Source: a virus (Duplodnaviria; Caudoviricetes). From it: 49,221 nucleotides of DNA. Shown piece by piece: positions 292-49,221 of the stretch; positions within the stretch are counted from its first letter, which is position 1; each line of letters opens with the position of its first letter. The stretch is taken from positions 1 to 49,221 of the IMG/VR virus record IMGVR_UViG_3300037470_000364, one strand, 5' to 3'. The notes under the pieces are model-generated. The model ran no database searches and had not been told where the DNA came from. It saw nothing but the letters and a program-made list of their open reading frames with translations. The translations under genes and the position numbers were made by a program.

Positions 292-427
292 GCCCTACCC
301 TCCATCCAAGGTCGTCGGCCCAGGCGTCGAGGCGCATGGAGAGAGAGACTAGCGGCGACAAAAGAACGGTAAGCGCGCTCGCCAAGAAACGAACGGACTT
401 CTGTGCGAACGTCGGCCTGTGCGTCAC
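278..427 (-). CDS. small hypothetical protein (49 aa)
   Basis: GTGA-coupled to the upstream gene and fills the gap; not in ORF track. Confidence 0.4.
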   Translation of the reverse strand: MTHRPTFAQKSVRFLASALTVLLSPLVSLSMRLDAWADDLGWRVGRDDG

Positions 428-831
428 GCCTTCCCCACCCCTAACGCTTCGATGATGGCGAGCACGTCCTCTCTAACCCCTTCGTCGTGCCCCATCTGCA
501 ACCGTATCTTCTCTGCCCCGTACATGGTTGAGGAGTGGTCCCTTCCTGAAAACTTGCCTATGCTCGCCCAAGAGTCGCCCCTGAGTTTTCTTGCTAAATG
601 CCACGCGATGTGCCGCGCACGGGATATGTACGCGAGCCTTGAGGGGCCTAAGACCTCCTCGCAGGTGGCACCGCACCGCTGGGCCGAAGCCCGCAGAATG
701 GCGTCCATTGACGGCCTCTTGCCGTTCGCGGTGAGAATCCTTACCGCTAGAGCCGCGTCCTGTCCAGAGATTATCCGTAGGTTCTTCTCGACCTCGGACT
801 TTACGAGTTCTCTGACTTCTTGCTCCGTCAT
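424..831 (-). CDS. DnaA C-terminal (domain IV) HTH DNA-binding protein
   Basis: SRARHIAWHLARKL...SWASIGKFSGRDHSSTMYG matches the DnaA domain IV signature; start MTEQEV at 831. Confidence 0.85.
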   Translation of the reverse strand: MTEQEVRELVKSEVEKNLRIISGQDAALAVRILTANGKRPSMDAILRASAQRCGATCEEVLGPSRLAYISRARHIAWHLARKLRGDSWASIGKFSGRDHSSTMYGAEKIRLQMGHDEGVREDVLAIIEALGVGKA

Positions 832-1025
832 GTCAGCCTCTGCGCCTCCCTGAAACTTCCGAACGGCTTGAACCCGTCGGCTAGAACTGAACCGGAAGGA
901 CGCCTGAGCATCCGTTCGTACCCGCTCGCGCACTTCACGAACGCGGCGAAAATCGTCCCTTCCATCTGGTCGAGGTACAACGCTTGCTCTTCGCCAGACA
1001 TCGAGTCCCATAATTGTTTCGTCAC
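828..1025 (-). CDS. hypothetical protein
   Basis: GTG start overlapping the upstream stop; coupled at both ends. Confidence 0.6.
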   Translation of the reverse strand: MTKQLWDSMSGEEQALYLDQMEGTIFAAFVKCASGYERMLRRPSGSVLADGFKPFGSFREAQRLT

Positions 1026-25142: not shown

Positions 25143-26096
25143 TTACTCGGACGGCTCGCCGTACTCTTCGACGTCGGTGTAGTAGTTCGGCCCCCAGAAC
25201 GGGGTCGAGCTTGCTGTGAAGCGGGCATCAACTACCGAAGCCTCGTCGGACGCGCAGTACATTCCGTTGAACGCTACGCGCTCCTCCGATCCGCCGGTGA
25301 TGTCAATGGCGATGGTGTTGGTCACGCCCAACGAGTTCAGCATGAATTCGTTGTACATGATCCTTGGCCCGGAGGCCGCGATGTCAATGTCCGTGTGGTT
25401 GGCGTGGAACTTGTTGCCAATGATGTCCCAGCCGAACATGGTGCCGATACCGGCTCCCACGACGCTGATGATCGCGTCGTTGTCCGACTGGTCGAACAGC
25501 ATGAACTCATTGTCGTAGATTTTGACCCTGGCGCAACCGCCCGAGTCCTGAATCCCGTACAGCCCTGCCTGGAACCGGCAGCCCTGAATCCATGCGTGGC
25601 TCGCGTCCTTTTCGTCCGCGCCTTCCGCCGTCCGTATCAGTTGGATGCAACCAACGTTGTCGTCCTCGTCCCCGGTAAAGAGGATGTTGAGGATTCGCCA
25701 CCCCTGCTGCCTGACCTCAAGCAGCGGGACGGAGTCGGTCGGTGTCGCCGGTGCGTTCCACCGTGCGGCCCTTTGCCCGCCATACGTCTCGGACGCCGTG
25801 TTGGCGTCCGGGTGGCGCGTGACGGGGCTGGGGCCGACGATTGTGACGTCGTAGACGCCGTGCGGGGTCGTCAGTTGCTCCCTGACGTTGCCCCGCAGGT
25901 GGATCGTGTCTCCCGAGCGCACGACGTCGAACGCCTGCTCCATCGTGAGCATCGGCTTGTCCCTGGACTTGCCGTTGTTCTTGTCCGAGCCTTCGTTGCC
26001 GTCAACGAACCACTGGTCGCCCCAGTACCCGCCTTCGGCGATCTTGGGCAACACCGGCAGCCCGTAGGAGGCCAGTCCGTCTTTGTAGTTAGTCAT
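25143..26096 (-). CDS. pectin-lyase-like beta-helix virion protein
   Basis: WFVDGNEGSDKNNGKSRDKPMLTMEQA...GDTIHL, then beta-helix repeats. Confidence 0.8.
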   Translation of the reverse strand: MTNYKDGLASYGLPVLPKIAEGGYWGDQWFVDGNEGSDKNNGKSRDKPMLTMEQAFDVVRSGDTIHLRGNVREQLTTPHGVYDVTIVGPSPVTRHPDANTASETYGGQRAARWNAPATPTDSVPLLEVRQQGWRILNILFTGDEDDNVGCIQLIRTAEGADEKDASHAWIQGCRFQAGLYGIQDSGGCARVKIYDNEFMLFDQSDNDAIISVVGAGIGTMFGWDIIGNKFHANHTDIDIAASGPRIMYNEFMLNSLGVTNTIAIDITGGSEERVAFNGMYCASDEASVVDARFTASSTPFWGPNYYTDVEEYGEPSE

Positions 26097-27004
26097 TAGG
26101 GGTTTGCTCCGAACACGCCGTAGCTGTGGACCCAGAAGTGCTTGTAGAACTCGAAGATGACGGTCTTGATCCCAACGACGTCGGGGTCAGCGAGGGTCAT
26201 CTGGTCAATGCCGGGGCCGCGAAGCTCGCGGAGGCCGTGCATGGCCGGGTTCTCAGCGACGATGAAGTACGCGGTCACGTCCGTCAGATAGGACATCGCG
26301 TGGGGCTGGATGCGCTTCGCCCAGACGTTCGTGTCGAACTCTGCGCTACCGGGCTTGTACTGCCCAGCCGCGATCATCAGAGCCTCGGACTCTAGGTCCG
26401 TCGGAACGACCAGCTTGACGTTGCCACGGAACCTCCGAGCGAAGTTCCTGGGGTCCTTGACCGCCCGCAGCTCCGAGAGCATCGCCCAGACCGCATCGAC
26501 GTCCATAGCGACGTCCGTGGTCGGACGAGACTTGTACGTCGGGTTGCCGGAACCGGCCCCCACCGTGGTCGAGAACAGTTCGTCCCCGTCCGGGCCTTCG
26601 CCGTTGTCGGTGAAGCCCTCGTTGAAGATTCCAGCCATCTGGATTTGCTTCGTCTCAAGCAGGGCGTCCCGTGCGAGCATGGCGTTCTCACCGATCGCAC
26701 CGTAGAGGTCGAAGTTCTTGGCCTCGATGGAGACCTTGTAGCCCTTCGTCCACTTGGGGATGGTGATGTTCTGCGTATAGACCTGCTTGCGCGTGTCATA
26801 CGTCACGTTGTCGTTCTCGTCCGTCTGCTCACCGGCACCGAACCCGGTGACCGACTTGACCTGGACGATCTGCTGTCCGTCGTTCCCCATCACGGAGAAC
26901 AGCGGGCCTCCCTCGTCCACGAAGTCGGGCGGGGTGGTCTTGATGACCTCCTGCGTCCCCTTCTGGACCAAGTTCAGCGTCTCTGTGGTAATAGTCTGTG
27001 CCAT
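26096..27004 (-). CDS. major capsid protein (Mu gpT-like family)
   Basis: 302 aa; FNEGF...GPDGDELFST, LVVPTDLE, YLTDVTAYF; located after scaffold and decoration genes. Confidence 0.85.
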   Translation of the reverse strand: MAQTITTETLNLVQKGTQEVIKTTPPDFVDEGGPLFSVMGNDGQQIVQVKSVTGFGAGEQTDENDNVTYDTRKQVYTQNITIPKWTKGYKVSIEAKNFDLYGAIGENAMLARDALLETKQIQMAGIFNEGFTDNGEGPDGDELFSTTVGAGSGNPTYKSRPTTDVAMDVDAVWAMLSELRAVKDPRNFARRFRGNVKLVVPTDLESEALMIAAGQYKPGSAEFDTNVWAKRIQPHAMSYLTDVTAYFIVAENPAMHGLRELRGPGIDQMTLADPDVVGIKTVIFEFYKHFWVHSYGVFGANP

Positions 27005-37885: not shown

Positions 37886-38059
37886 ATGAATCAAATGACG
37901 ACGAACCGCTACGAACTAGACCCGAAGACCATGACCCGCCCGTACTCCCTGTACCGGAAGGTGCAGTACCTTCTGTGGGCGATCAACCCGTTTAGCACCT
38001 ACGAGCAGATCAAAGGGCTTATCGAGCGTTGCGACCGCCACGAGGGCATAGTCCGATGA
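37886..38059 (+). CDS. hypothetical protein (first gene of inverted island)
   Basis: ATGA-coupled to the next gene; not in ORF track. Confidence 0.5.
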   Translation: MNQMTTNRYELDPKTMTRPYSLYRKVQYLLWAINPFSTYEQIKGLIERCDRHEGIVR

Positions 38060-38493
38060 CCCACACCGAGATACTAGAACCTACCGCAGCGTACTTCACC
38101 GACAAGGCAAAGGCGCTTGCACGGCACTATTCCGAGGGCGGGACGCTCTACAAGCGCAAGGACTCGGCCCCTAAGTCCGTCAAGCCTTGGGCCAACGGCA
38201 CAATCCCCGAGTCCCGCGCCGACTGGTACGAGCCGTTCATGGTCAACGGCGGTATGCCGGTCTGGACGCTCGTCCTCAATATGTTCTCAGACCTTACTGG
38301 CTACGGCACGGGCAAAGGCTGGCACCGCCGGTTTTCTTTCCACGCCCGCAACCAAGAGGCCGCCGAGACCCTGGCCCGCTCATGGGCTCGCTATCAAGGC
38401 TTCGGCCCCAACGAGGTAGCGGTCTCCATTGCTACACCCGACGAGATTCAAGGCGGACTGTCTAACGAGTTCGTGGAGGCGTTCAGACCATGA
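38056..38493 (+). CDS. hypothetical protein
   Basis: ATGA-coupled at both ends. Confidence 0.6.
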   Translation: MTHTEILEPTAAYFTDKAKALARHYSEGGTLYKRKDSAPKSVKPWANGTIPESRADWYEPFMVNGGMPVWTLVLNMFSDLTGYGTGKGWHRRFSFHARNQEAAETLARSWARYQGFGPNEVAVSIATPDEIQGGLSNEFVEAFRP

Positions 38494-38735
38494 ATACCGA
38501 ATGGATCATCGAAAACCTTGTCAACCCACACGACCCAGGACTTAGCGCAAGCCGAACCGCTGAATACTGCCGGGTGAAACGGGCCTGGAACCTCGTCAAG
38601 GGCCATGTTCCAAACTGGATCATAGCCCCACGCATTCGCGCAGCCAAGGCCGAAACGTTCGACGACCTGCGGCAGGCCGTCCGCGACTGCGGAGACGCCT
38701 ACGAGCGTAAAATGGCGCAAGTTAGGAACAAATGA
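38490..38735 (+). CDS. hypothetical protein
   Basis: SD GGAGG, coupled. Confidence 0.6.
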   Translation: MNTEWIIENLVNPHDPGLSASRTAEYCRVKRAWNLVKGHVPNWIIAPRIRAAKAETFDDLRQAVRDCGDAYERKMAQVRNK

Positions 38736-38929
38736 GCCTACACCTCAAATGCCACAAATGCAGCGCGGAAGCGACGTTCGCAGACTCCCCGCCAGAGTCG
38801 GCGTATAACGCAGGCTGGCGGGTCAAGACGTTTCACCCGCTTCGCTACCTGTGCCCGTACCATGCACAAGCCCAACTGCGGCGAATGATGCGCATGGCGA
38901 ACGCAAAACGGGAGGCCAACGAAAAATGA
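38732..38929 (+). CDS. small zinc-binding protein
   Basis: CHKC...AGW...LCPYH. Confidence 0.6.
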   Translation: MSLHLKCHKCSAEATFADSPPESAYNAGWRVKTFHPLRYLCPYHAQAQLRRMMRMANAKREANEK

Positions 38930-39498
38930 ACGAAACCAAGAGCATGAACTGTTCGGTTTGCGGCTTGGAAAACCCAGCCGACTACACCCAGGAGCCAGAC
39001 GGTACGATTCTATGCCGGGACTGCGAACTCGGCGCGGATATGCCGGAATCCGAGGAACTCAAGTACCAACCCTGGATAGCCGAGGGAATCACAGAGGCGG
39101 ACTACTGGCGCAAACGCTACCTTGAACTCCAGCAGGACACGCACCGTTTGTACGAGACGCTTGGGCTGAAGTCTGTCCCTGGGGAGCAAGCAGACGAAGC
39201 CACGGAAACGAGATACCCGTACATCCGCCCATCCCCTCAAGGGGAGCCAGTAGAAAAGATCGGCGCAAGCGGCTTTCCTCTAAATAAGCGCGAACTGTTC
39301 GCGGCTATGGCGATGCAGGGGATTTGCTCTATGGCCGATGAAAGGACACCGCCAGCGAAAATCATCCACGACCCAGAGGCAACCGCCACATGGCTGAGGG
39401 AGCGACAACTAGATGACGGCTACTGCGCCGTTGCGATGGCCGACGCCCTTCTCGCAGCCCTCTCAGACGGGGAGCTAGCGAACGAGCCCAACCAATGA
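38926..39498 (+). CDS. phage protein with Zn ribbon and FAAMAMQG...ADALL module
   Basis: CSVC..CRDC plus LNKRELFAAMAMQG...AMADALLAAL. Confidence 0.65.
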   Translation: MNETKSMNCSVCGLENPADYTQEPDGTILCRDCELGADMPESEELKYQPWIAEGITEADYWRKRYLELQQDTHRLYETLGLKSVPGEQADEATETRYPYIRPSPQGEPVEKIGASGFPLNKRELFAAMAMQGICSMADERTPPAKIIHDPEATATWLRERQLDDGYCAVAMADALLAALSDGELANEPNQ

Positions 39499-39707
39499 TA
39501 CAGCTACGGTGCCCGCGCTGCAATCTTACGATGGACACCCCGCGAGAGGCATACGACCCCGAAACTGCAACGGTAGCCGAAACCCTGTGCCCCGAGTGCA
39601 TAGACGCAACACTGGCGCACGAACCTGGAACGGACTACTTCGACGCCAACGGCGATGAGGTGGACTGGTTCACGCCTACCGAGGAACTGGAACAATACAA
39701 TGAGTAA
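39495..39707 (+). CDS. small zinc-ribbon protein
   Basis: CPRC...CPEC. Confidence 0.6.
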   Translation: MIQLRCPRCNLTMDTPREAYDPETATVAETLCPECIDATLAHEPGTDYFDANGDEVDWFTPTEELEQYNE

Positions 39708-40038
39708 AACCGCAGGACTAGAACAATGGGTACGCAACGAGATTGCGTACGCTTTGCGCCTAAACCCACCCGGCTCCGAGTTTTACAACTACGGAAACGT
39801 CGCCAAGTGGCAAGCAATAGCCGACGCCCTCGGGCACGGTGACAAACAGCAAGCCAGAATTGCTGACTTGGAGAGCGCACTAGAGGCAATCGAGTTCGCT
39901 ACCCGCCCTGACTCGGGTTCGTTCTGGCTGTTGCGAAGCTGGCTCAAGGACCGCGACATTTACGGCGACGACGTAAGCGAAGAACACGTCTTCAATCTCG
40001 TCGCCAGGTCACTAATCACACCCAGGGTGGAACCGTGA
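39700..40038 (+). CDS. hypothetical protein
   Basis: Overlapping ATG start. Confidence 0.55.
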   Translation: MSKTAGLEQWVRNEIAYALRLNPPGSEFYNYGNVAKWQAIADALGHGDKQQARIADLESALEAIEFATRPDSGSFWLLRSWLKDRDIYGDDVSEEHVFNLVARSLITPRVEP

Positions 40039-40214
40039 AGCGCGGTCGGTGGGCAGTCAAGAAAACGACGTGCTTCGGCGGTTGCTCGTGGTCGGTGTAC
40101 CCACGGTTCGCGGCGTTCGCGCTCGACCTGCTGCCCAACGTCAGGTTCGCCGAGAACTCCTGGCGCGGGGACAATCACTGTCTAGCCTTGTCAGGGTTCT
40201 TAGAGACCCAGTAG
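40035..40214 (+). CDS. hypothetical protein
   Basis: GTGA-coupled 59-aa ORF; not in ORF track. Confidence 0.35.
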   Translation: MKRGRWAVKKTTCFGGCSWSVYPRFAAFALDLLPNVRFAENSWRGDNHCLALSGFLETQ

Positions 40215-40288
40215 CCCTTCCGACCTTTGCACCTGCCAACTTGTTCGGTCTCTGAACGAGGCGGCAGAGTGGAGAGCAAGGAACACAA

Positions 40289-40699
40289 ATGAGCACACCT
40301 AAGAAAAGACTGGGTTTCAAATCCCACAGCAAACGAAACGAGGCCCGCAACTATATGGCGCAAGAGTTCGCCATCGAGCAGGCCGACCGCAAAACGAAAA
40401 CTGAAAACAAGGCACTAGCCACGAACGAACCCGGCGAATGGCGTGGCGTCGAGCTACACATTCCTAATCAGGCTTCGCGCTGGACAGTCACACGCCGACC
40501 GTTCGGGGGCGATCCCAACTTCTGCATCTGCAACACCCAAGACGAGGCCGATAGGGTCTCCGCGATCCTGAACTCCCACGACGCGCTGGTATCTGCGCTC
40601 AGGGAATGTCGCGCCGCGCTTGAAAATGCCAACAATGACCCGCTGCTTGCAGTCAAGCAGGCCGACGCCGCGCTCAAGGCCGCAGGAGTGGAACTGTGA
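40289..40699 (+). CDS. hypothetical phage protein
   Basis: ILNSHDALVSAL...ADAALKAA motif. Confidence 0.65.
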   Translation: MSTPKKRLGFKSHSKRNEARNYMAQEFAIEQADRKTKTENKALATNEPGEWRGVELHIPNQASRWTVTRRPFGGDPNFCICNTQDEADRVSAILNSHDALVSALRECRAALENANNDPLLAVKQADAALKAAGVEL

Positions 40700-40866
40700 A
40701 CGAACTAATCGAAAAACTCAAGACTGCGAAGGCGAACGTCCTGTGGCTGCTCGATCACAAGTCCGGCCTAGTGGATATGCACGGCCTGTCCTACTGGGCC
40801 GGGGAAGTCGAACGGCTCCGAGACGAGATTGAGGACGCGACCGAGGCCGTAGGAGTGGAACTGTGA
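40696..40866 (+). CDS. hypothetical protein (56 aa)
   Basis: GTGA-coupled at both ends; not in ORF track. Confidence 0.55.
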   Translation: MNELIEKLKTAKANVLWLLDHKSGLVDMHGLSYWAGEVERLRDEIEDATEAVGVEL

Positions 40867-41096
40867 GACGATCCGCCTATAACCGGCGCGTCGAGACTAT
40901 CAGGGCGCAGGCCCATGTCCTTGTTGAGGCTATCGGAGAGCTTGAGCAGGACGCCCGCGACTACTACGACGAACGAAGCGAAAAGTGGCAGGACTCGGAC
41001 AAGGGCGCTGCCTTTGACGACTTCCTGAGCGACGTTGAGTCCGCGCAAGATGAGATCGCAACTGCGATAGACTCGCTACCGGAGTACCCCGAGTGA
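40863..41096 (+). CDS. conserved acidic phage protein
   Basis: YYDERSEKWQDSDKG motif. Confidence 0.7.
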   Translation: MRRSAYNRRVETIRAQAHVLVEAIGELEQDARDYYDERSEKWQDSDKGAAFDDFLSDVESAQDEIATAIDSLPEYPE

Positions 41097-41269
41097 GCCC
41101 CTACATCTCAACAAAGGACACCGCCCTCTACCTGAACGTCTCCAAGTCACGAGTGAGGCACTTGGAGCGGGACGGGAAGATCAAGCGGCCAAAAGACGTC
41201 CCGAGGGGCTACTTTGACCGCAAGAGCGTCGAGGCGTACAGGCTGAAACGAGACGGCCCTGGCAAGTAG
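41093..41269 (+). CDS. small HTH (excisionase/MerR-like) protein
   Basis: YISTKDTALYLNVSKSRVRHLERDGKI...FDRKSVEAY; not in ORF track. Confidence 0.75.
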   Translation: MSPYISTKDTALYLNVSKSRVRHLERDGKIKRPKDVPRGYFDRKSVEAYRLKRDGPGK

Positions 41270-42356: not shown

Positions 42357-42575
42357 TCATCTGCTGGAGAACCTGTCCCGCCCGTCCTCTATCGCCCGCT
42401 TGATCCACTCCAGGTCAGTCTTGATCTCGGCCAGTATCTCCGGCACCTGCTCGACCTTCTTGACCTTCAGCTCAAGCTCAACGAGCTTCTGGTTCCGCAT
42501 CCCCGCCGAGAACACCACCGCAATCGTGGGGACCAGGGCCGCCAGTATCAAGTGCCAAAGCTCGACCTGTATCAA
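42357..42575 (-). CDS. holin-like / membrane-anchored coiled-coil protein
   Basis: N-terminal TM then LAEIKTDLEWIK; coupled to the endolysin. Confidence 0.6.
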   Translation of the reverse strand: MIQVELWHLILAALVPTIAVVFSAGMRNQKLVELELKVKKVEQVPEILAEIKTDLEWIKRAIEDGRDRFSSR

Positions 42576-43111
42576 AGCCCCCTCAAATCTATAAATCCCG
42601 ACTCGAAGTTCATGTCCAGAGCGTTCTTGCGCCGGTCCTTGTAGTACACGCCGTCGCCCTCCCGACCGCCGTTCGCGTTAGTGTTGCCCTCGATCGTTTC
42701 CACCCACTCCGGCCATGACGCCGTGTTCCTCACGAAACCGATGTGGCCCGTGCCGTTGGCCGAGAGCCAGTAGAACAGGTGCCCCCTCTTCGGGGCGTCT
42801 TTCAAGCGACCGCCCGCCTTGGCCCACAACACCCACTCCCTCACGCTCGCGCCCTTCCACTTGTTCGGGAGCTTCTTCCTGTCCGCCCCCGCCTTGTCGA
42901 GGCAGTGGAAGGTAAAAGCCGCACACCATGCGTAGCCGGGGCCGAGGCCGACCTTGGAAAGGAACAGCGCGGGCCAGAACCCCGTGTTGCCCCTTCTTTC
43001 CTTCACCTTGGCGACCGCGTACACCGAGGCCCAGTGCAAGGCCCGCTCCCACGCGGGCATGGCCTCGTACTTCTCCTTGGTGAGCCAACTGACGCTTGAA
43101 AAGTCCTTCAC
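42572..43111 (-). CDS. CHAP-domain endolysin
   Basis: AWCAAF, GHIGFV and TIEGNT motifs. Confidence 0.88.
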   Translation of the reverse strand: MKDFSSVSWLTKEKYEAMPAWERALHWASVYAVAKVKERRGNTGFWPALFLSKVGLGPGYAWCAAFTFHCLDKAGADRKKLPNKWKGASVREWVLWAKAGGRLKDAPKRGHLFYWLSANGTGHIGFVRNTASWPEWVETIEGNTNANGGREGDGVYYKDRRKNALDMNFESGFIDLRGL

Positions 43112-43200
43112 TTCCTCCACCGTTTCGCTATCTCGATGCCGAGCAGGATTCCGAGCATGAGCAAAAAATAGCCCAGCCAGTACCCAGCGACGCCGGACAA
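43108..43200 (-). CDS. 30-aa membrane peptide
   Basis: MSGVAGYWLGYFLLMLGILLGIEIAKRWRK; stop overlaps the endolysin start; not in ORF track. Confidence 0.55.
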   Translation of the reverse strand: MSGVAGYWLGYFLLMLGILLGIEIAKRWRK

Positions 43201-43201
43201 C

Positions 43202-43414
43202 TCATTCCTTGTTCCTGGCCGCCTCGATCTCTGCGACCACGGCCTCCAGGTAAGAACAGGTCTGCTTCACCGTCATGCACGACTTCTTCCGGTAAGTCAC
43301 GCCGTCCACGTCCTCAGTCCTGAACGGGACGCCGACCGCGTAGCCGTCCTCCATGACCTCGACCTGCAACGGCTCATAGTCCTCGAACCCTTCAGGAAGA
43401 AGCCTTTTCCCCAT
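43202..43414 (-). CDS. hypothetical protein
   Basis: Start MGKRLL overlapping the phosphoesterase end. Confidence 0.55.
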   Translation of the reverse strand: MGKRLLPEGFEDYEPLQVEVMEDGYAVGVPFRTEDVDGVTYRKKSCMTVKQTCSYLEAVVAEIEAARNKE

Positions 43415-44447
43415 GTCTGCCCCGTAGGAACCCAAGATAGTCCGCACCGGCCCTGATGTCGTGAAAGACCGTCACGAGGCTCTCGGGCGGGGCCTTCGGA
43501 TCTACCACGCACGCGACCGAAGGGCTGATCACTTCATCGTCAAGCCCTAACTGGTCCGCAAATTCATCGAAACGCTTATAGGACCCGACCCTGATCGCGT
43601 GCCCGATGTGCCCCGTCACGCCGTTCTTGAGCAGCGTGTACGCGCTCTGGTGGACGTGCGCCCCCACTATCACGTCCGCCTGCGAGCCCCGGTGGTTCCG
43701 CTTGAGCTGCCCGTGCGAGGGGTTGTACATGGACCTGCCCTTGTGGTCGTGCCTCGCGTCCACCGTTAAAACCCTGTCCCCGCAGCGCACCTTGAACACC
43801 GCGCCGTGCGAGACGTAGGTGACGCCGTGCTTCTTGCACAGCAGTTCCGCTATCGCCCGCCACTTGTCGTGGTTCCCCAGGATGACGAACATCCAGTCGA
43901 GGACACCGACGATGTACTCGGCCACCTCTATGGACTCGTCGGAGGTGACGTGCTGCGCGCCCCACAAGTGCTCCAACCGACCGATCCAGTTGTTCGTCAG
44001 GTCGCCCATGTTCGCCGCGTAGAGGTGCGGCGTGTTCCTTACCGTCTCTACGTCGAAGCTGAACTTCTCGAAGTCGAACCCGTCGTCGTCGCCGTGTGGG
44101 TCGCCCAAGAAAGCTATCCCGAACGGGCCGGGGTCGTCAAGGGTTATCTCCACCCCCGAGTGTTTCGACTCCCACCGCTCGCGCTTGCTCGCGTAGTGCC
44201 GGGCCTGGTCGCGGATCACGTCTTCCGGACTGCGGTTCACCGTCACAGGGCTCTTGACCGTGAACCCTACCGACGCCGTGCCGTACTTCAGCCCGAGCCT
44301 AGAAGCCCTGTTCAGGGCCGACGACCTGTTCCTGCCCTGCCCTACTAGGGACAGTTGGGACAGTATCTGGTCGAACGGTGCGCCGGGCTCGTACAGCCGG
44401 TACAGCACCGCGTCCTCAGCTTCCGTCCAAGGTCTGCCTCCAGCGAT
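43392..44447 (-). CDS. calcineurin-like metallophosphoesterase with N-terminal HTH
   Basis: GDPH, GDLTNN, GNHD, H and GAHVH motifs; N-terminal WTEAEDAVL; probable ATC start at 44447. Confidence 0.85.
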   Translation of the reverse strand: MAGGRPWTEAEDAVLYRLYEPGAPFDQILSQLSLVGQGRNRSSALNRASRLGLKYGTASVGFTVKSPVTVNRSPEDVIRDQARHYASKRERWESKHSGVEITLDDPGPFGIAFLGDPHGDDDGFDFEKFSFDVETVRNTPHLYAANMGDLTNNWIGRLEHLWGAQHVTSDESIEVAEYIVGVLDWMFVILGNHDKWRAIAELLCKKHGVTYVSHGAVFKVRCGDRVLTVDARHDHKGRSMYNPSHGQLKRNHRGSQADVIVGAHVHQSAYTLLKNGVTGHIGHAIRVGSYKRFDEFADQLGLDDEVISPSVACVVDPKAPPESLVTVFHDIRAGADYLGFLRGRHGEKASS

Positions 44448-44481: not shown

Positions 44482-44688
44482 CTATGCGGTCAGTTCTTTC
44501 AGTAGCGCAAAGAGCGCGTCCACTTTGTCGCCGTTCTTTAGGTGGCGCAGCATCCGTATGGCGAGATAGTTGTCGCTATCGGCACAAGCCTTGTCGCAAA
44601 CGTCGCGCAGACGGGCCCTCGCCTCGTCGCGCTTGCGCTCTGCCAGTAGTGAATCCGCCGCTTCCCGCTCTTTGTCGTAGTGTCCCAT
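44482..44688 (-). CDS. hypothetical protein
   Basis: First ORF after the long non-coding leader. Confidence 0.6.
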   Translation of the reverse strand: MGHYDKEREAADSLLAERKRDEARARLRDVCDKACADSDNYLAIRMLRHLKNGDKVDALFALLKELTA

Positions 44689-44694
44689 TGCGCC

Positions 44695-45206
44695 TTTCTG
44701 TGCCCTTGAGCGTTCGGCCCGACGGTGTCGGGCCTACTTACTGCCGCGTCCCGCCCTTGCCTTCGTGTGTGGCGAGCGGACTTCGTGGAACTTTGAGATT
44801 GAGGGGCAGGCATTCTCAAACCTGGGCCGTTTTTGCGTTTGGGCCGCGAAACTCTCTCGCCAAAATGAATTAGTGCCTGTTAGCCGTGCGGCTACTTTTA
44901 GCACCGAGACTGAATCCGGCCTGCCGCCTCAGCCATTGTCGCCATACGATGCGACGACCTACGCTCGCCACAGGCCGAAACTGAACTCTCCGGAGATTCC
45001 GGAAGGTTCAAGCCTTACTGGCCTTGCGCTGTGCCGCTTGCTCCGAGGAGCCACCCCCGGTTACCACGGAACGGCTTTGGCCCACCTCACAGCGCGAGAC
45101 CTTTCACGGACACCCGTAGCTTCTGTTTTCTGAAGCTCCCCGATGAAACGGGTAACCTGGTTGTACTCGTTCTGACGGGCGCACAGGGTGCTAAGTTGCG
45201 CCTCTC
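44695..45206 (-). ncRNA. putative large structured RNA / late leader
   Basis: ~510 nt with no credible ORF, about 10 hairpins, two long-range helices and an upstream extended -10. Confidence 0.6.
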
Positions 45207-45867
45207 AAAGTGAGAATACCACAGATTCTCCGAGTTTTGTTCCCTGCTGGATTTTTATCTCGGCCTCCAGTTTGTCGATCAGGGCGTACTCCATGTTCCT
45301 CAGCCGTTTTGCTATCTTCTTTTCGCCCTCGTCCCCGAAGTGCCGGAAGAGCTTTCTATCAACCCCCGACTCTACGAAAGCCCTAGCGGGGTCTATCCAC
45401 CAACGGTCGTCAGAAAGGGACGGGACGTAGTTCCCCTTCCGTGGGTACTTGGTCGCCAGGTACACGAACAGGGTGTCGGGAAAGTCGTCCATTATCGGTT
45501 CCACGAGCGAGACGCAGAACAGCACCCTCGGGTCTGAAAGGTGCTTGGCTTTCCGTTGGTACTTGTGGATGTAGTACGCCTTCTTGTCTCCGAGCGTCCT
45601 GACCTTGTAGGCGGCGTCATACGGCCTTTCCGAGCTTGTTAGGTCGGGGGGTTGGAACGGTAGCGGTGGCAAAGGCTTGTCCGCGCCCCATATCGCCTTG
45701 AACTCGGGGTAGTTCCCTCCCCCGTCGGTCATTTGGGAGTGTATCGCCGAGTAGTACACGTCGAGCGCCCACTTGGCCTGTACCCTCGGGTCGGCGGGCC
45801 TGACAGATTCCAGAGAGCCCTTGGGCACGAACGCCTGGGCCGAGTACGACTTTTCCATGTCCTTCAC
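45205..45867 (-). CDS. orphan protein in late-regulator (Q-like) position
   Basis: Coupled to the MTase; last gene before the late leader; no recognisable motif. Confidence 0.6.
   Translation of the reverse strand: MKDMEKSYSAQAFVPKGSLESVRPADPRVQAKWALDVYYSAIHSQMTDGGGNYPEFKAIWGADKPLPPLPFQPPDLTSSERPYDAAYKVRTLGDKKAYYIHKYQRKAKHLSDPRVLFCVSLVEPIMDDFPDTLFVYLATKYPRKGNYVPSLSDDRWWIDPARAFVESGVDRKLFRHFGDEGEKKIAKRLRNMEYALIDKLEAEIKIQQGTKLGESVVFSL
45213..45221 (-). promoter_or_regulatory. extended -10 promoter candidate (late, pR'-like position)
   Basis: TG-G-TATTCT at the end of the upstream gene. Confidence 0.45.
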
Positions 45868-47102
45868 TTCTTCACCCCTGCCTCCGTCGCAAGAGCGACC
45901 AGAGCGCAGACTGCATACGCCGCTTGAATCGGACAAACTCCGTTTCCGAGCAACCGAAGCTGGTCCACCCTTCGGGCCAGCCCATCAGGTACTCCACAAA
46001 TCTCGCGTTCAACCGCAGGGGCGAGGTCTGGCCTGGTTTCGAGCACCCGCCGCCAACCTTCTCGGTCTCCTGGGCCGGGAGGGAACAGAGGGATTCCATC
46101 GCGGAACTCGCCTGCATCGTCAGCGGTGGGGTCGAAACGTCGCCCGCGTCCTTGCGCCTCTGCCAGACTTCCGGGTCCTCGCTCGTCGTCTTGTCCGCTC
46201 GTGGAGTCGCCCATTCCTTCGCCGTCTCGTCTAGCATCCTTCCGCCCGTCCCCGGCTTGCGGCCCGCCGCGCCCCTGCCCGTCAGTTCCCCCGCCCTCGG
46301 TGTGGGCCAAGTGTCGTCCGGCGTGGCCCAGAGGTTCGCCTGGTTCCCCAGCCCCGGCACCCGGTTCTTGCAGTTCGAGCCCGTGTTCGGGGCCTCTGGC
46401 ATCGAGTCCGGCGTGTGCCACATCTTCGCCATGTCCTTGAGGCCAGGGTTCGCGCCCTGCTCCAACCGTTGCTTGCTCCCCGAGTCGTTCCCGTTCTCGC
46501 CCGATCTCGGAGTCGGCCAGTCCGAAGCCGCCTGCCGCAAGTTCGGCCCCCGTTCCCCGTTGGAGTAGGTCGCCGTGTTCGCATCGGCGGTGGGCCAGGA
46601 GGAACAGCCGCTCCCTCCTGTGCGAAGCCCCGACGTCCGAAGCTCTGACGAGTACGCCCTCAACCTCGTAACCCATCCCTCGAAGGTCTCCCCACACTCC
46701 GTCAAGCCCAAGTCGAACGTGCCCTGCGACGTTCTCGAACACGCAGAAGGAAGGCTCGACCTCCGCAACGATTCGAGCGACCTCGGGCCATAAGTGTCGG
46801 TGATCGTCCTCTCCAAGTCCCTTGCCCGCAACGCTGAAGGGTTGGCACGGGTATCCGCCCACGACGCAATCCACCGCTCCACGCCAAGGTCTACCGTCGA
46901 AGGTCGTAAGGTCGTCCCAGACAGGAGCTTGATCCAGGCGTCCGTCCTGCATCGCTTTCGCCAGAACCGCGCAAGCGAAAAGCTCCCTCTCCACATAAGC
47001 GACCGTTCTAGCCGAAGGTACGGCGAGTCCGATTCCCAGGTCGAGTCCGCCTCCACCTGAGCAAAGGCTGAGGATTCTAAGGGGACGTGTACCCACATTC
47101 AC
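45864..47102 (-). CDS. DNA (cytosine-5) methyltransferase, alpha polypeptide
   Basis: Motifs I (LCSGGGG), IV (GYPCQPFS), VI (ENV), VIII (HRRERLF) and X (LRLLGNGV); motif IX absent. Confidence 0.92.
   Translation of the reverse strand: MNVGTRPLRILSLCSGGGGLDLGIGLAVPSARTVAYVERELFACAVLAKAMQDGRLDQAPVWDDLTTFDGRPWRGAVDCVVGGYPCQPFSVAGKGLGEDDHRHLWPEVARIVAEVEPSFCVFENVAGHVRLGLDGVWGDLRGMGYEVEGVLVRASDVGASHRRERLFLLAHRRCEHGDLLQRGTGAELAAGGFGLADSEIGRERERLGEQATVGAGREPWPQGHGEDVAHAGLDARGPEHGLELQEPGAGAGEPGEPLGHAGRHLAHTEGGGTDGQGRGGPQAGDGRKDARRDGEGMGDSTSGQDDERGPGSLAEAQGRGRRFDPTADDAGEFRDGIPLFPPGPGDREGWRRVLETRPDLAPAVEREICGVPDGLARRVDQLRLLGNGVCPIQAAYAVCALVALATEAGVKK
45872..47098 (-). CDS. overlapping alternative-frame MTase beta polypeptide (TRD plus motif IX)
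   Basis: Repeated WxTP units and RLNARFVEYLMGWPEGWT (motif IX). Confidence 0.75.
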   Translation of the reverse strand: MWVHVPLESSAFAQVEADSTWESDSPYLRLERSLMWRGSFSLARFWRKRCRTDAWIKLLSGTTLRPSTVDLGVERWIASWADTRANPSALRARDLERTITDTYGPRSLESLRRSSLPSACSRTSQGTFDLGLTECGETFEGWVTRLRAYSSELRTSGLRTGGSGCSSWPTADANTATYSNGERGPNLRQAASDWPTPRSGENGNDSGSKQRLEQGANPGLKDMAKMWHTPDSMPEAPNTGSNCKNRVPGLGNQANLWATPDDTWPTPRAGELTGRGAAGRKPGTGGRMLDETAKEWATPRADKTTSEDPEVWQRRKDAGDVSTPPLTMQASSAMESLCSLPAQETEKVGGGCSKPGQTSPLRLNARFVEYLMGWPEGWTSFGCSETEFVRFKRRMQSALWSLLRRRQG

Positions 47103-47390: not shown

Positions 47391-49221
47391 CGCCCCCCAC
47401 CTCGCGTCCTGCCCGGTCGTCGCCTCTCGTTTCAGCCGCCATTGCCATGACCCTTCGCCCCCGAACTTGTCCCGGTCCGATACGACCCCCGCGAGCTTCT
47501 TTGCGTCCGAGTAAATCCTTTTCGAAAAACCCATCTCTTTGCACCTTCGCTCCATCACCGTCGCGTCCTGCGCCCCTTGGGACAGCACTTCCACAAGCCA
47601 GTCCGCGCACTCGTCCCTCCGCCCCCTGGCCTCCCTGGTCTGGGGGGCCTCGCACATCCGCTCCCCGTCGAGGTCGCTGAACCCTATCCAGCCGAACGCC
47701 CCGTTTTCTACCGTGAAGGCTATCGCCCGACCCTTGGGGCCGACATTGGACTTTTCGTGCGAGATGGCCGTCTCGTTCTTGTTGTCTGGGTCGGCCCCAC
47801 AGATCAGCAGCGACCTCGCGGCCCCGGTGAAGTCCACGGACCCGCTCACTCGGTGCAAGGCTTTTTGGCCGACCGCCTTGTTGTTGTGGGCGATACAGAC
47901 TATCGAGCAGTTCACGGCCCTGGCTATCGAGTTCAACCGCCGCATCCATTCCCTGACCGAGTTCGCGGTGTTGAAGTCCCTAGTGGCCTCGAAATAGGCC
48001 GTGATCGTGTCCACGACGATCAGCACGGGCCGTAGCCCCTCTGCGACCGCCTTCAGTTCGGCTATCCCGTTGGCGTCGAGGACGAACGGATGCAGGTCCC
48101 CTTGTTCGTCCTCCTCGTCCGGCAGGGTCACAAGATCGAGGTCCGCGCCCATCTCTTTGAACCGTGGGACCGTCACCGTGGCCCGCGACTGCTCGGCGGA
48201 CATGAAAACGACCGGGCCTTGCGCCACCGGGATTCCCAGCACGTCGGTCCCGTTCGTGCAGGCCGTCGCTATCGCCTGGGCGACCGTGGACTTTCCAACG
48301 CCTGGGTCGCCGGACAGGATCGTGACCTCACCCCTCGGGATGTACGGCTCGAACAAAAACTCCACCTTCGCCGGAGTGATCTGGCTGGCCCTGGTCCATC
48401 CTTGCGGCTTCCGTTCGTGGTCTGTGCCGACCATGACGCGCGGCTCCTGTCTCTTGTCCGGGCTTTGTTGGTCGCCGTACCCTGACCTTCCAAGGTGCTT
48501 GGCGGCCTCGATGAAGTTCCCGCCGTATTCTAAGAAGCTGAAGGCCGCGAACTTCGTGTACGTAGCGCCTGGTTCGAACGGGTGCGCGTTGCTTGAGAAC
48601 ACTTTGAGCAGGTCGGACCCTTTGTAGTTCGTCGTCGCGGAAGTGCCGTCCCTGACCTTCTTCCCAGGCCGGGTCCAATACCCTTCCCCGGCTGTCTCCC
48701 TTGCGAGCGCCCAACCGTGCGGGCCTAACACGTCCGCCCAGGAATGGGTACGGGCGAAGTCGTCCCCCGGCCTTCTGGCCTCCCTCGGCCCGTCGTGCGT
48801 GTACGGTCGGTCGTTGGTCTCTGACAGGCTTCTAGCGACCGATAGGAGCGCGTCCCGCTCTTCGCCAGATACTACGGGTATCTGCCCCCAGGAACCGGAC
48901 GCGAGCGAATATCCAGGCGAAGGCCACGCGACCACGTACCCGCCGTTCCCCCTGGTTTCAATGACCTCTTGCGGGGGGATGTCCTCATGGACCAGGGCTA
49001 AAGCGAGCTTCGTGTTCCCGCCTACTCCGTCGAGACAGCGGTACGGGACGTGCCAACCTCCCGAAGGCGTCTTGATAAGGAGCGTAAGTTTTGCGAGCAG
49101 GCTTTCGTGCCCCGCCAAAATAAGGGCCGCCTTCCAGTCTTCGTAGAAGTCCCTGTCCTTGGGATAGTGCTTTGCGTCGAAGTCCAGCACTTCCAAAGCG
49201 CCTGAAACGTCGCCGCAAAGC
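47388..49221 (-). CDS. bifunctional primase-polymerase plus AAA (RepA/AAA_25-like) helicase, 3' part
   Basis: LDFD, KTPSGGWH and ETRGNGGYVVAWPS PrimPol motifs; GDPGVGKS Walker A, IVVDT Walker B, AHNNK. Confidence 0.92.
   Translation of the reverse strand, partial: LCGDVSGALEVLDFDAKHYPKDRDFYEDWKAALILAGHESLLAKLTLLIKTPSGGWHVPYRCLDGVGGNTKLALALVHEDIPPQEVIETRGNGGYVVAWPSPGYSLASGSWGQIPVVSGEERDALLSVARSLSETNDRPYTHDGPREARRPGDDFARTHSWADVLGPHGWALARETAGEGYWTRPGKKVRDGTSATTNYKGSDLLKVFSSNAHPFEPGATYTKFAAFSFLEYGGNFIEAAKHLGRSGYGDQQSPDKRQEPRVMVGTDHERKPQGWTRASQITPAKVEFLFEPYIPRGEVTILSGDPGVGKSTVAQAIATACTNGTDVLGIPVAQGPVVFMSAEQSRATVTVPRFKEMGADLDLVTLPDEEDEQGDLHPFVLDANGIAELKAVAEGLRPVLIVVDTITAYFEATRDFNTANSVREWMRRLNSIARAVNCSIVCIAHNNKAVGQKALHRVSGSVDFTGAARSLLICGADPDNKNETAISHEKSNVGPKGRAIAFTVENGAFGWIGFSDLDGERMCEAPQTREARGRRDECADWLVEVLSQGAQDATVMERRCKEMGFSKRIYSDAKKLAGVVSDRDKFGGEGSWQWRLKREATTGQDARWGA
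49095..49221. repeat. terminal direct repeat, copy 2
   Basis: Identical to 1-127. Confidence 0.95.

Follow-up and report, generated by a model that had tools for sequence, protein, structure and literature searches.

The closest described systems to the locus studied here are the late leaders of lambdoid phages, for which the accessible part of PMC6606751 describes how Q acts through promoter elements and how 21Q (complex structure 6JNX) resembles sigma R4. In Stx phages, the PR′-to-tR′ transcript of 258 nt is processed to the sRNA StxS, according to the available excerpt of PMC7547250. Two further groups of elements invite comparison: ROOL and GOLLD, often encoded beside tRNA islands (PMC12286853, accessible part), and the GTAG-tagged REPs, which are hypothesised to act in termination and mRNA stabilisation (PMC3733652, accessible part). 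Here we describe positions 44689–45204 of the window (that is, the whole 49,221-nt stretch of viral DNA that was analysed) and propose that they form a pR′-type, Q-controlled late leader of a temperate soil phage, built of separate hairpin modules, a reading that we regard as moderately probable.

Gene order and the gene upstream of the leader

Profile searches showed that the virus record encodes integrase, primase-helicase, methylase, endolysin, terminase and capsid genes, a gene set that marks the phage as temperate and tailed; the record has terminal repeats, and CheckV estimates its completeness at 46%. Downstream of the leader and on the same strand lie, by profile matches, an endolysin gene, a terminase gene, a gene in the head–tail adaptor/portal position and a capsid gene. 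The features of the locus are:

45205–45858, minus strand: orphan gene of 217 aa, likely a Q21-type late antiterminator on its predicted fold
45212–45230, minus strand: putative late promoter by sequence match, with an extended −10 (45221–45213) in an inverted repeat
45020–45101, minus strand: 5′ stem with a firm closing helix (z −2.28; 3/200 shuffles as stable)
44978–45011, minus strand: candidate tR′ terminator hairpin at about +196 to +229, followed by a weak U tail (z −2.62)
44915–44979, minus strand: long hairpin of irregular shape and the strongest structure at the local scale (z −3.88; 0/200 shuffles)
44794–44914, minus strand: variable middle with three small hairpins and the 44792–44820 hairpin, replaced in relatives
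44703–44793, minus strand: conserved 91-nt 3′ module (hairpin 44780–44750, linker, GTAG-tagged REP-like hairpin 44734–44716)
44482–44688, minus strand: 68-aa ORF, first after the leader, an optional cassette (codon score positive)
43392–44408, minus strand: metallophosphoesterase-like gene (phrog_7339, E 6.6e-36)
42572–43120, minus strand: CHAP endolysin gene (PF05257; phrog_9589)

The 217-aa protein encoded upstream of the leader matched nothing in Pfam, PHROG, NCBIfam or the PDB sequences, and searches of genomes, which included 301 from the phylum to which G004 belongs, returned no loci for it. Its family comprises 15 representatives among 1.84 billion (E up to 0.001, query included), one of which was dropped as a long repeat protein, with two closer relatives; Q family profiles matched none of the 11 members scanned, and a profile built from the family does not find Q21 by sequence. 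When its two structure models were compared with 48,161 chains using VIA-align, 21Q (6jnx_P) ranked first with both (Z 4.8 for model one; Z 6.7, rmsd 3.9 and 115 aligned for the other, with the next-best chain at Z 4.8), at Z values below 8 and from models of low confidence (pLDDT 52 and 54); sigma region 4 domains followed in the ranking, and AlpA stood at rank 12. In Foldseek searches of the PDB, Q21 had the top TM-score among the matches listed (0.40/0.56, E 7.8), and no match reached E 0.001 or better. The Atlas lead for the protein was PF06323 (score 0.88), and that for its relative P0003 was weak (0.81, rank 3). On the basis of this predicted Q-like fold, the protein is likely to be a Q21-type antiterminator. 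The first-pass annotation had placed the region in the position of lambda pR′, which is supported because a Q21-like fold is predicted upstream and lysis and packaging genes follow.

The extended −10 match TG-G-TATTCT, which that annotation had also pointed out, indeed starts at 45221; it overlaps the last codons of the Q-like gene and is one of 23 such matches on both strands of the genome. It lies within a 6-bp perfect inverted repeat (GAGAAT-N7-ATTCTC, 45212–45230) of which the genome has no other perfect copy, and a promoter at this site would start transcription near 45206. By eye, the promoter region has no 6-bp direct repeat of the 21Q kind, and it has no direct repeat of at least 9 nt, but carries the inverted repeat instead. 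Three of the six GAGAAT copies in the genome fall within 44817–45230, and three of the six build a pair of inverted repeats that are possible operator sites, the first covering the promoter and the second at 44795–44817 (absent in the metagenomic relative L038). A second extended −10 match (45189–45197, plus strand) is oriented so as to read into the 3′ end of the Q-like gene and could be an antisense promoter, for which lambda paQ offers an analogue.

Elsewhere in the window, two fully overlapping open frames occupy the methylase site on the minus strand (45864–47102, 412 codons; 45872–47098, 408 codons), the latter scoring higher on codon usage; 424–1011 (minus) encodes a phage protein with a DnaA C-terminal-like domain; and a cluster of small opposite-strand genes (37895–41269, plus) is inserted in the late operon between the lysis and terminase genes. 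ARAGORN found no tRNA or tmRNA genes. A host search gave no result, and the phosphoesterase matched none of 301 Acidobacteriota genomes.

Folding of the non-coding leader

Positions 44689–45204 (516 nt) are the longest of 14 gaps of at least 120 nt that remain after codon-usage scoring, which agrees with their earlier description as the longest gene-free stretch of the genome, and no protein-coding ORF was found across them (eight of the eight ORFs tested inside or across the region score negative on codon usage). The region had further been called highly structured, and its folding does beat that of shuffles (MFE z −3.40, with 0/100 equally stable) and ranks first of 49 minus-strand windows (z −3.9), although two coding windows come close (25695–26221, minus, z −3.57; 47695–48221, minus, z −3.22); the plus strand of the region folds equally well (z −3.86, 40 shuffles). 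The excess stability is local, residing in 44982–44910 (z −3.88), 45015–44975 (z −2.62) and 45105–45015 (z −2.28), with weaker scores for the middle (44822–44918, z −0.74) and the 3′ module (z −1.57), and the 3′ 286 nt of the region reach only z −1.28.

Infernal searches with Rfam gave no match in the region at gathering score (a looser search returned three chance matches, E 3.8–8.5), and the first reading had recognised no tRNA, tmRNA, RNase P or intron core; the covariance models of ROOL, GOLLD and OLE likewise had no matches at that score. Two ribozyme classes were rejected: the hammerhead, of which the minus strand has no CUGANGA core, and an HDV-like fold, for which a loose descriptor gave three weak matches in the window (3-bp P2) and different ones in L038, with no credible fold.

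All ten stems and strand pairs named in the first-pass annotation are present as it had drawn them. The closing helix of the 5′ stem is firm, its interior less certain. The candidate terminator hairpin has a pairing probability of 0.92 at all lengths tested, and the sole terminator-like match on the minus strand of the leader falls at 45004–44988, at an overall frequency of such matches (3 found, 2.2 expected) that is at chance level. The long irregular hairpin contains the 5′ strands of both long-range helices, that is, helix 1 (44962–44972/44768–44778, 11 bp, perfect) and helix 2 (44919–44931/44800–44811, 12 bp, one bulge); a perfect helix of at least 11 bp occurs in 3/200 shuffles (1.5%) and in 5/93 genome windows (5.4%, the region’s own included). 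Of the two competing folds that had been claimed, both are predicted and differ by less than 2 kcal/mol (−204.8 and −206.6), but the probability of the long-range fold runs from 0.00 to 0.93 with the ends chosen; the last hairpin (44734–44716) is formed in both (p 0.99–1.0). For the proposed pairing of the ends, the complementarity of 45177–45186 with 44698–44705 is present, but the pairing is weak (p at most 0.19). As evidence of a switch the two predicted folds are by themselves weak, and the competing long-range pairings are likely to be a by-product of GC-rich hairpin strands rather than a selected switch.

Relatives and the 3′ module

Collecting homologues yielded partial relatives, three to four in total: L038 from a metagenome scan (34 loci, one of them true), and X2, X3 and X4 from a set of four sequencing runs, X4 being counted once with L038 because it shares that locus’s changes, joint and loose end. 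No relative that covers the region came from runs X1, X5, X7 and X8; a single contig of X1, which may be the source, spans the whole of it. A blastn search of 50,697 phages returned 12 records, all with 27–30-nt matches; viral scans with four DNA patterns (0, 2, 10 and 13 loci) and GTDB scans (16 and 13 loci) returned nothing homologous to the region, and its two weak matches in the 301 Acidobacteriota genomes look like chance in coding-like sequence. None of eight distant phosphoesterase loci has DNA in common with the region, and at the six of these that were read, genes lie directly upstream with no long leader. A literature search, outside which lay most subscription papers and all supplements, found no description of the element. 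In an unrelated virus group (L088, L092–L100), a conserved 44-nt hairpin element immediately precedes different start codons; 16 nt of it are identical to window positions 44875–44890, its core occurs twice in G306, and it had no Rfam match in the five loci scanned.

Conservation is mosaic. The 3′ module (44703–44793) is 94.5% identical to L038 (5 changes in 91 nt) and is also found in X3 and X4, whereas the adjoining gene is 88% identical to L038, with 27/144 four-fold sites changed (Fisher p = 0.003 for the module against four-fold sites; p = 0.06 against the whole gene). This comparison places the module under selection. One of its changes converts A-U to G-U in the last hairpin and another breaks an inner pair of 44780–44750; none is compensatory. 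The 68-aa ORF is kept in X3 and skipped (245 bp) in X4 and L038, and in L038 the module consequently precedes a different gene. The phosphoesterase gene of the window lacks, at 44433–44436, the ATG present in X3, X4 and L038; its N terminus resembles what we take to be a Myb-like WT motif, a resemblance that extends to L003–L008.

Upstream of the module, the relatives switch over into other sequence (X2 at 44866, X3 at 44787 and X4 at 44793), and 44794–44865 is absent from them in the form seen in the window. The 155 nt of L038 upstream of 44793 are unalignable to the window and lack both the 44800–44811 strand and the 44792–44820 hairpin, and the 5′ 220 nt of the region are covered by none of the relatives found. 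X2, a single 151-nt contig of depth 2.2, matches 44866–44984 (7 of 9 substitutions listed). A reading by hand indicates that this contig retains the outer helix of the 44979–44915 hairpin, has an inner hairpin of other sequence and continues into L038-like sequence, and that 8 nt at its loose end are complementary to its version of 44930–44922, an equivalent of long-range helix 2 and the strongest argument for a larger fold. In L038, three hairpins succeed one another as they do in the middle of the window (hairpin, A(A/G)UUCA, hairpin, hairpin), and a long nested stem is likewise formed with the module. Its segments are no more stable than shuffled sequence (z 0.41 and −0.87), and a covariance model of 44822–44918 misses its matching stretch at E up to 10 (95,828 bases searched). 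Shuffled upstream parts matched or beat the cross-pairing with the module in 8/100 cases for L038 and 12/100 for the window, and the coupling energy in 66/100 and 33/100, respectively.

At the 3′ end of the module (44738–44716), an unpaired GTAG is followed by an 8-bp GC-rich stem, that is, a GTAG tag with a GC-rich palindrome. This hairpin and its flank resemble a GTAG-tagged repeat with 23 copies in G001 (at most one mismatch; control 0) and 7 in G003; the pattern was taken from the window stretch itself, and the likeness may be chance. In the phage genome, a pattern match and a self-search gave no second copy. The loci L011–L014, L016 and L022 (in genomes G001–G003) represent a multicopy GTAG REP-like family of Acidobacteriota that Rfam does not match.

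Rival readings and comparison with known systems

We suggest that host RNA polymerase would start constitutively near 45206 and, without Q, would halt at a leader hairpin (best candidate 45011–44978) to give a structured RNA of about 225 nt. The Q-like protein, once made, would load at the promoter and enable the polymerase to pass the hairpins and reach the late genes, a read-through that we infer from the mechanism of the Q family, and the 91-nt module probably acts as a second stop or as a processing or stabilising element before whichever gene comes first. Such a modular leader is favoured because the relatives keep the 3′ module before two different genes and swap the middle, and because the local hairpins carry the folding signal whereas the probability of the long-range fold is unstable. 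It is disfavoured by the Q assignment, which is without sequence support and draws on low Z and pLDDT values, by the weak tail of the terminator and the missing 21Q-like direct repeat, and by the 8-bp helix of X2 and the nested stem and parallel hairpins of L038. The 8-bp helix and the parallel hairpins would suit one large, ornate phage ncRNA of about 500 nt that is transcribed from the late promoter and retains its nested fold despite rapid sequence turnover, and so would the longest gap being the best-folding window, the uncommon 11-bp helix and the lack of an Rfam match. We consider this unlikely, given that the middle is unalignable and partly missing in relatives, that the covariance model misses L038, that the segments of L038 and the 3′ 286 nt of the region show little excess stability, and that there are no tRNA genes nearby, unlike what the accessible part of PMC12286853 describes for ROOL and GOLLD. 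The first-pass annotation’s new large phage ncRNA, understood as a single conserved RNA of ~510 nt, is likewise not supported, as the relatives keep the last 91 nt only and the folding excess is local. Barely less improbable is a new class of large phage RNA that a late promoter of the Q type would produce, with a nested fold preserved through wholesale sequence replacement and the 91-nt 3′ domain as a core toggled by upstream strands.

The same annotation had alternatively proposed a conformational switch, which could work co-transcriptionally if 44972–44962 sequestered the hairpin 44780–44750 and thereby controlled either read-through or the translation of the gene that comes first in the late operon. 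The near-equal folds, a predicted equilibrium that flips during chain growth, and the capacity of both the window and L038 to sequester one and the same strand although their upstream sequences differ would accord with this, but neither the cross-pairing nor the coupling energy is above that of shuffles, the hairpin has no U-tract after it, the last hairpin is formed in both folds and the balance depends on the ends, so that we hold a switch to be very unlikely. It is also improbable, if less so, that the function lies at the DNA level, with inverted repeats to which proteins bind, a REP-like element of host origin and RNA folding that is incidental: the equal folding of both strands, the two GAGAAT inverted repeats and the likeness of the 3′ hairpin to the Acidobacteriota repeat point this way, against which the A-U to G-U change fits a minus-strand RNA (one event), the REP likeness came from a pattern of the same stretch, and the phosphoesterase is unmatched in the 301 Acidobacteriota genomes.

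The modular leader, if correct, would mean that Q21-type late control reaches into a divergent lineage of soil phages, by way of a protein family unrecognised by any profile, and would place a compact, testable, conserved non-coding element of 91 nt at the head of a lysis operon; late leaders are already known as a source of regulatory RNAs. Were the larger fold conserved, a new large phage RNA class would follow, but the present data favour the more modest reading. Among known phage leader elements, the put RNA antiterminator of HK022 is a two-hairpin cis element; the 3′ module of the window likewise consists of two hairpins in a phage leader, but lies about 410 nt from the putative start, has a spacing of about 15 nt between the two and is accompanied by a Q-like protein.

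The GTAG REPs, as far as the accessible part of PMC3733652 describes them, share with the window the GTAG and the 8-bp GC-rich stem, whereas the window’s hairpin is single-copy in the phage and conserved within a 91-nt module. Compared with ROOL and GOLLD (PMC12286853, accessible part), the putative leader RNA is similarly phage-encoded, several hundred nucleotides long, non-coding and multi-helix, but is without an Rfam match, a tRNA island or full-length conservation in the relatives found. StxS occupies the same position downstream of Q (PMC7547250, accessible part), and its likeness to the window is one of position and length (258 nt there; probably about 225 nt here), with no sequence relation seen; a stable RNA from the window leader is plausible because the Stx PR′–tR′ transcript yields StxS. 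With the lambdoid pR′–tR′ leaders (21Q/Q21, as covered in the accessible part of PMC6606751), the locus shares a gene of predicted Q fold directly upstream, a promoter-like site at the end of that gene, a hairpin-rich leader, and lysis followed by packaging genes. It differs from them in its 516-nt leader, in a protein unrecognised by any Q profile, in an inverted repeat over the promoter where 21Q has a 6-bp direct repeat, and in the absence of a strong U-tract terminator. On the basis of fold prediction and gene order, we consider the locus a likely member of the lambdoid pR′ class.
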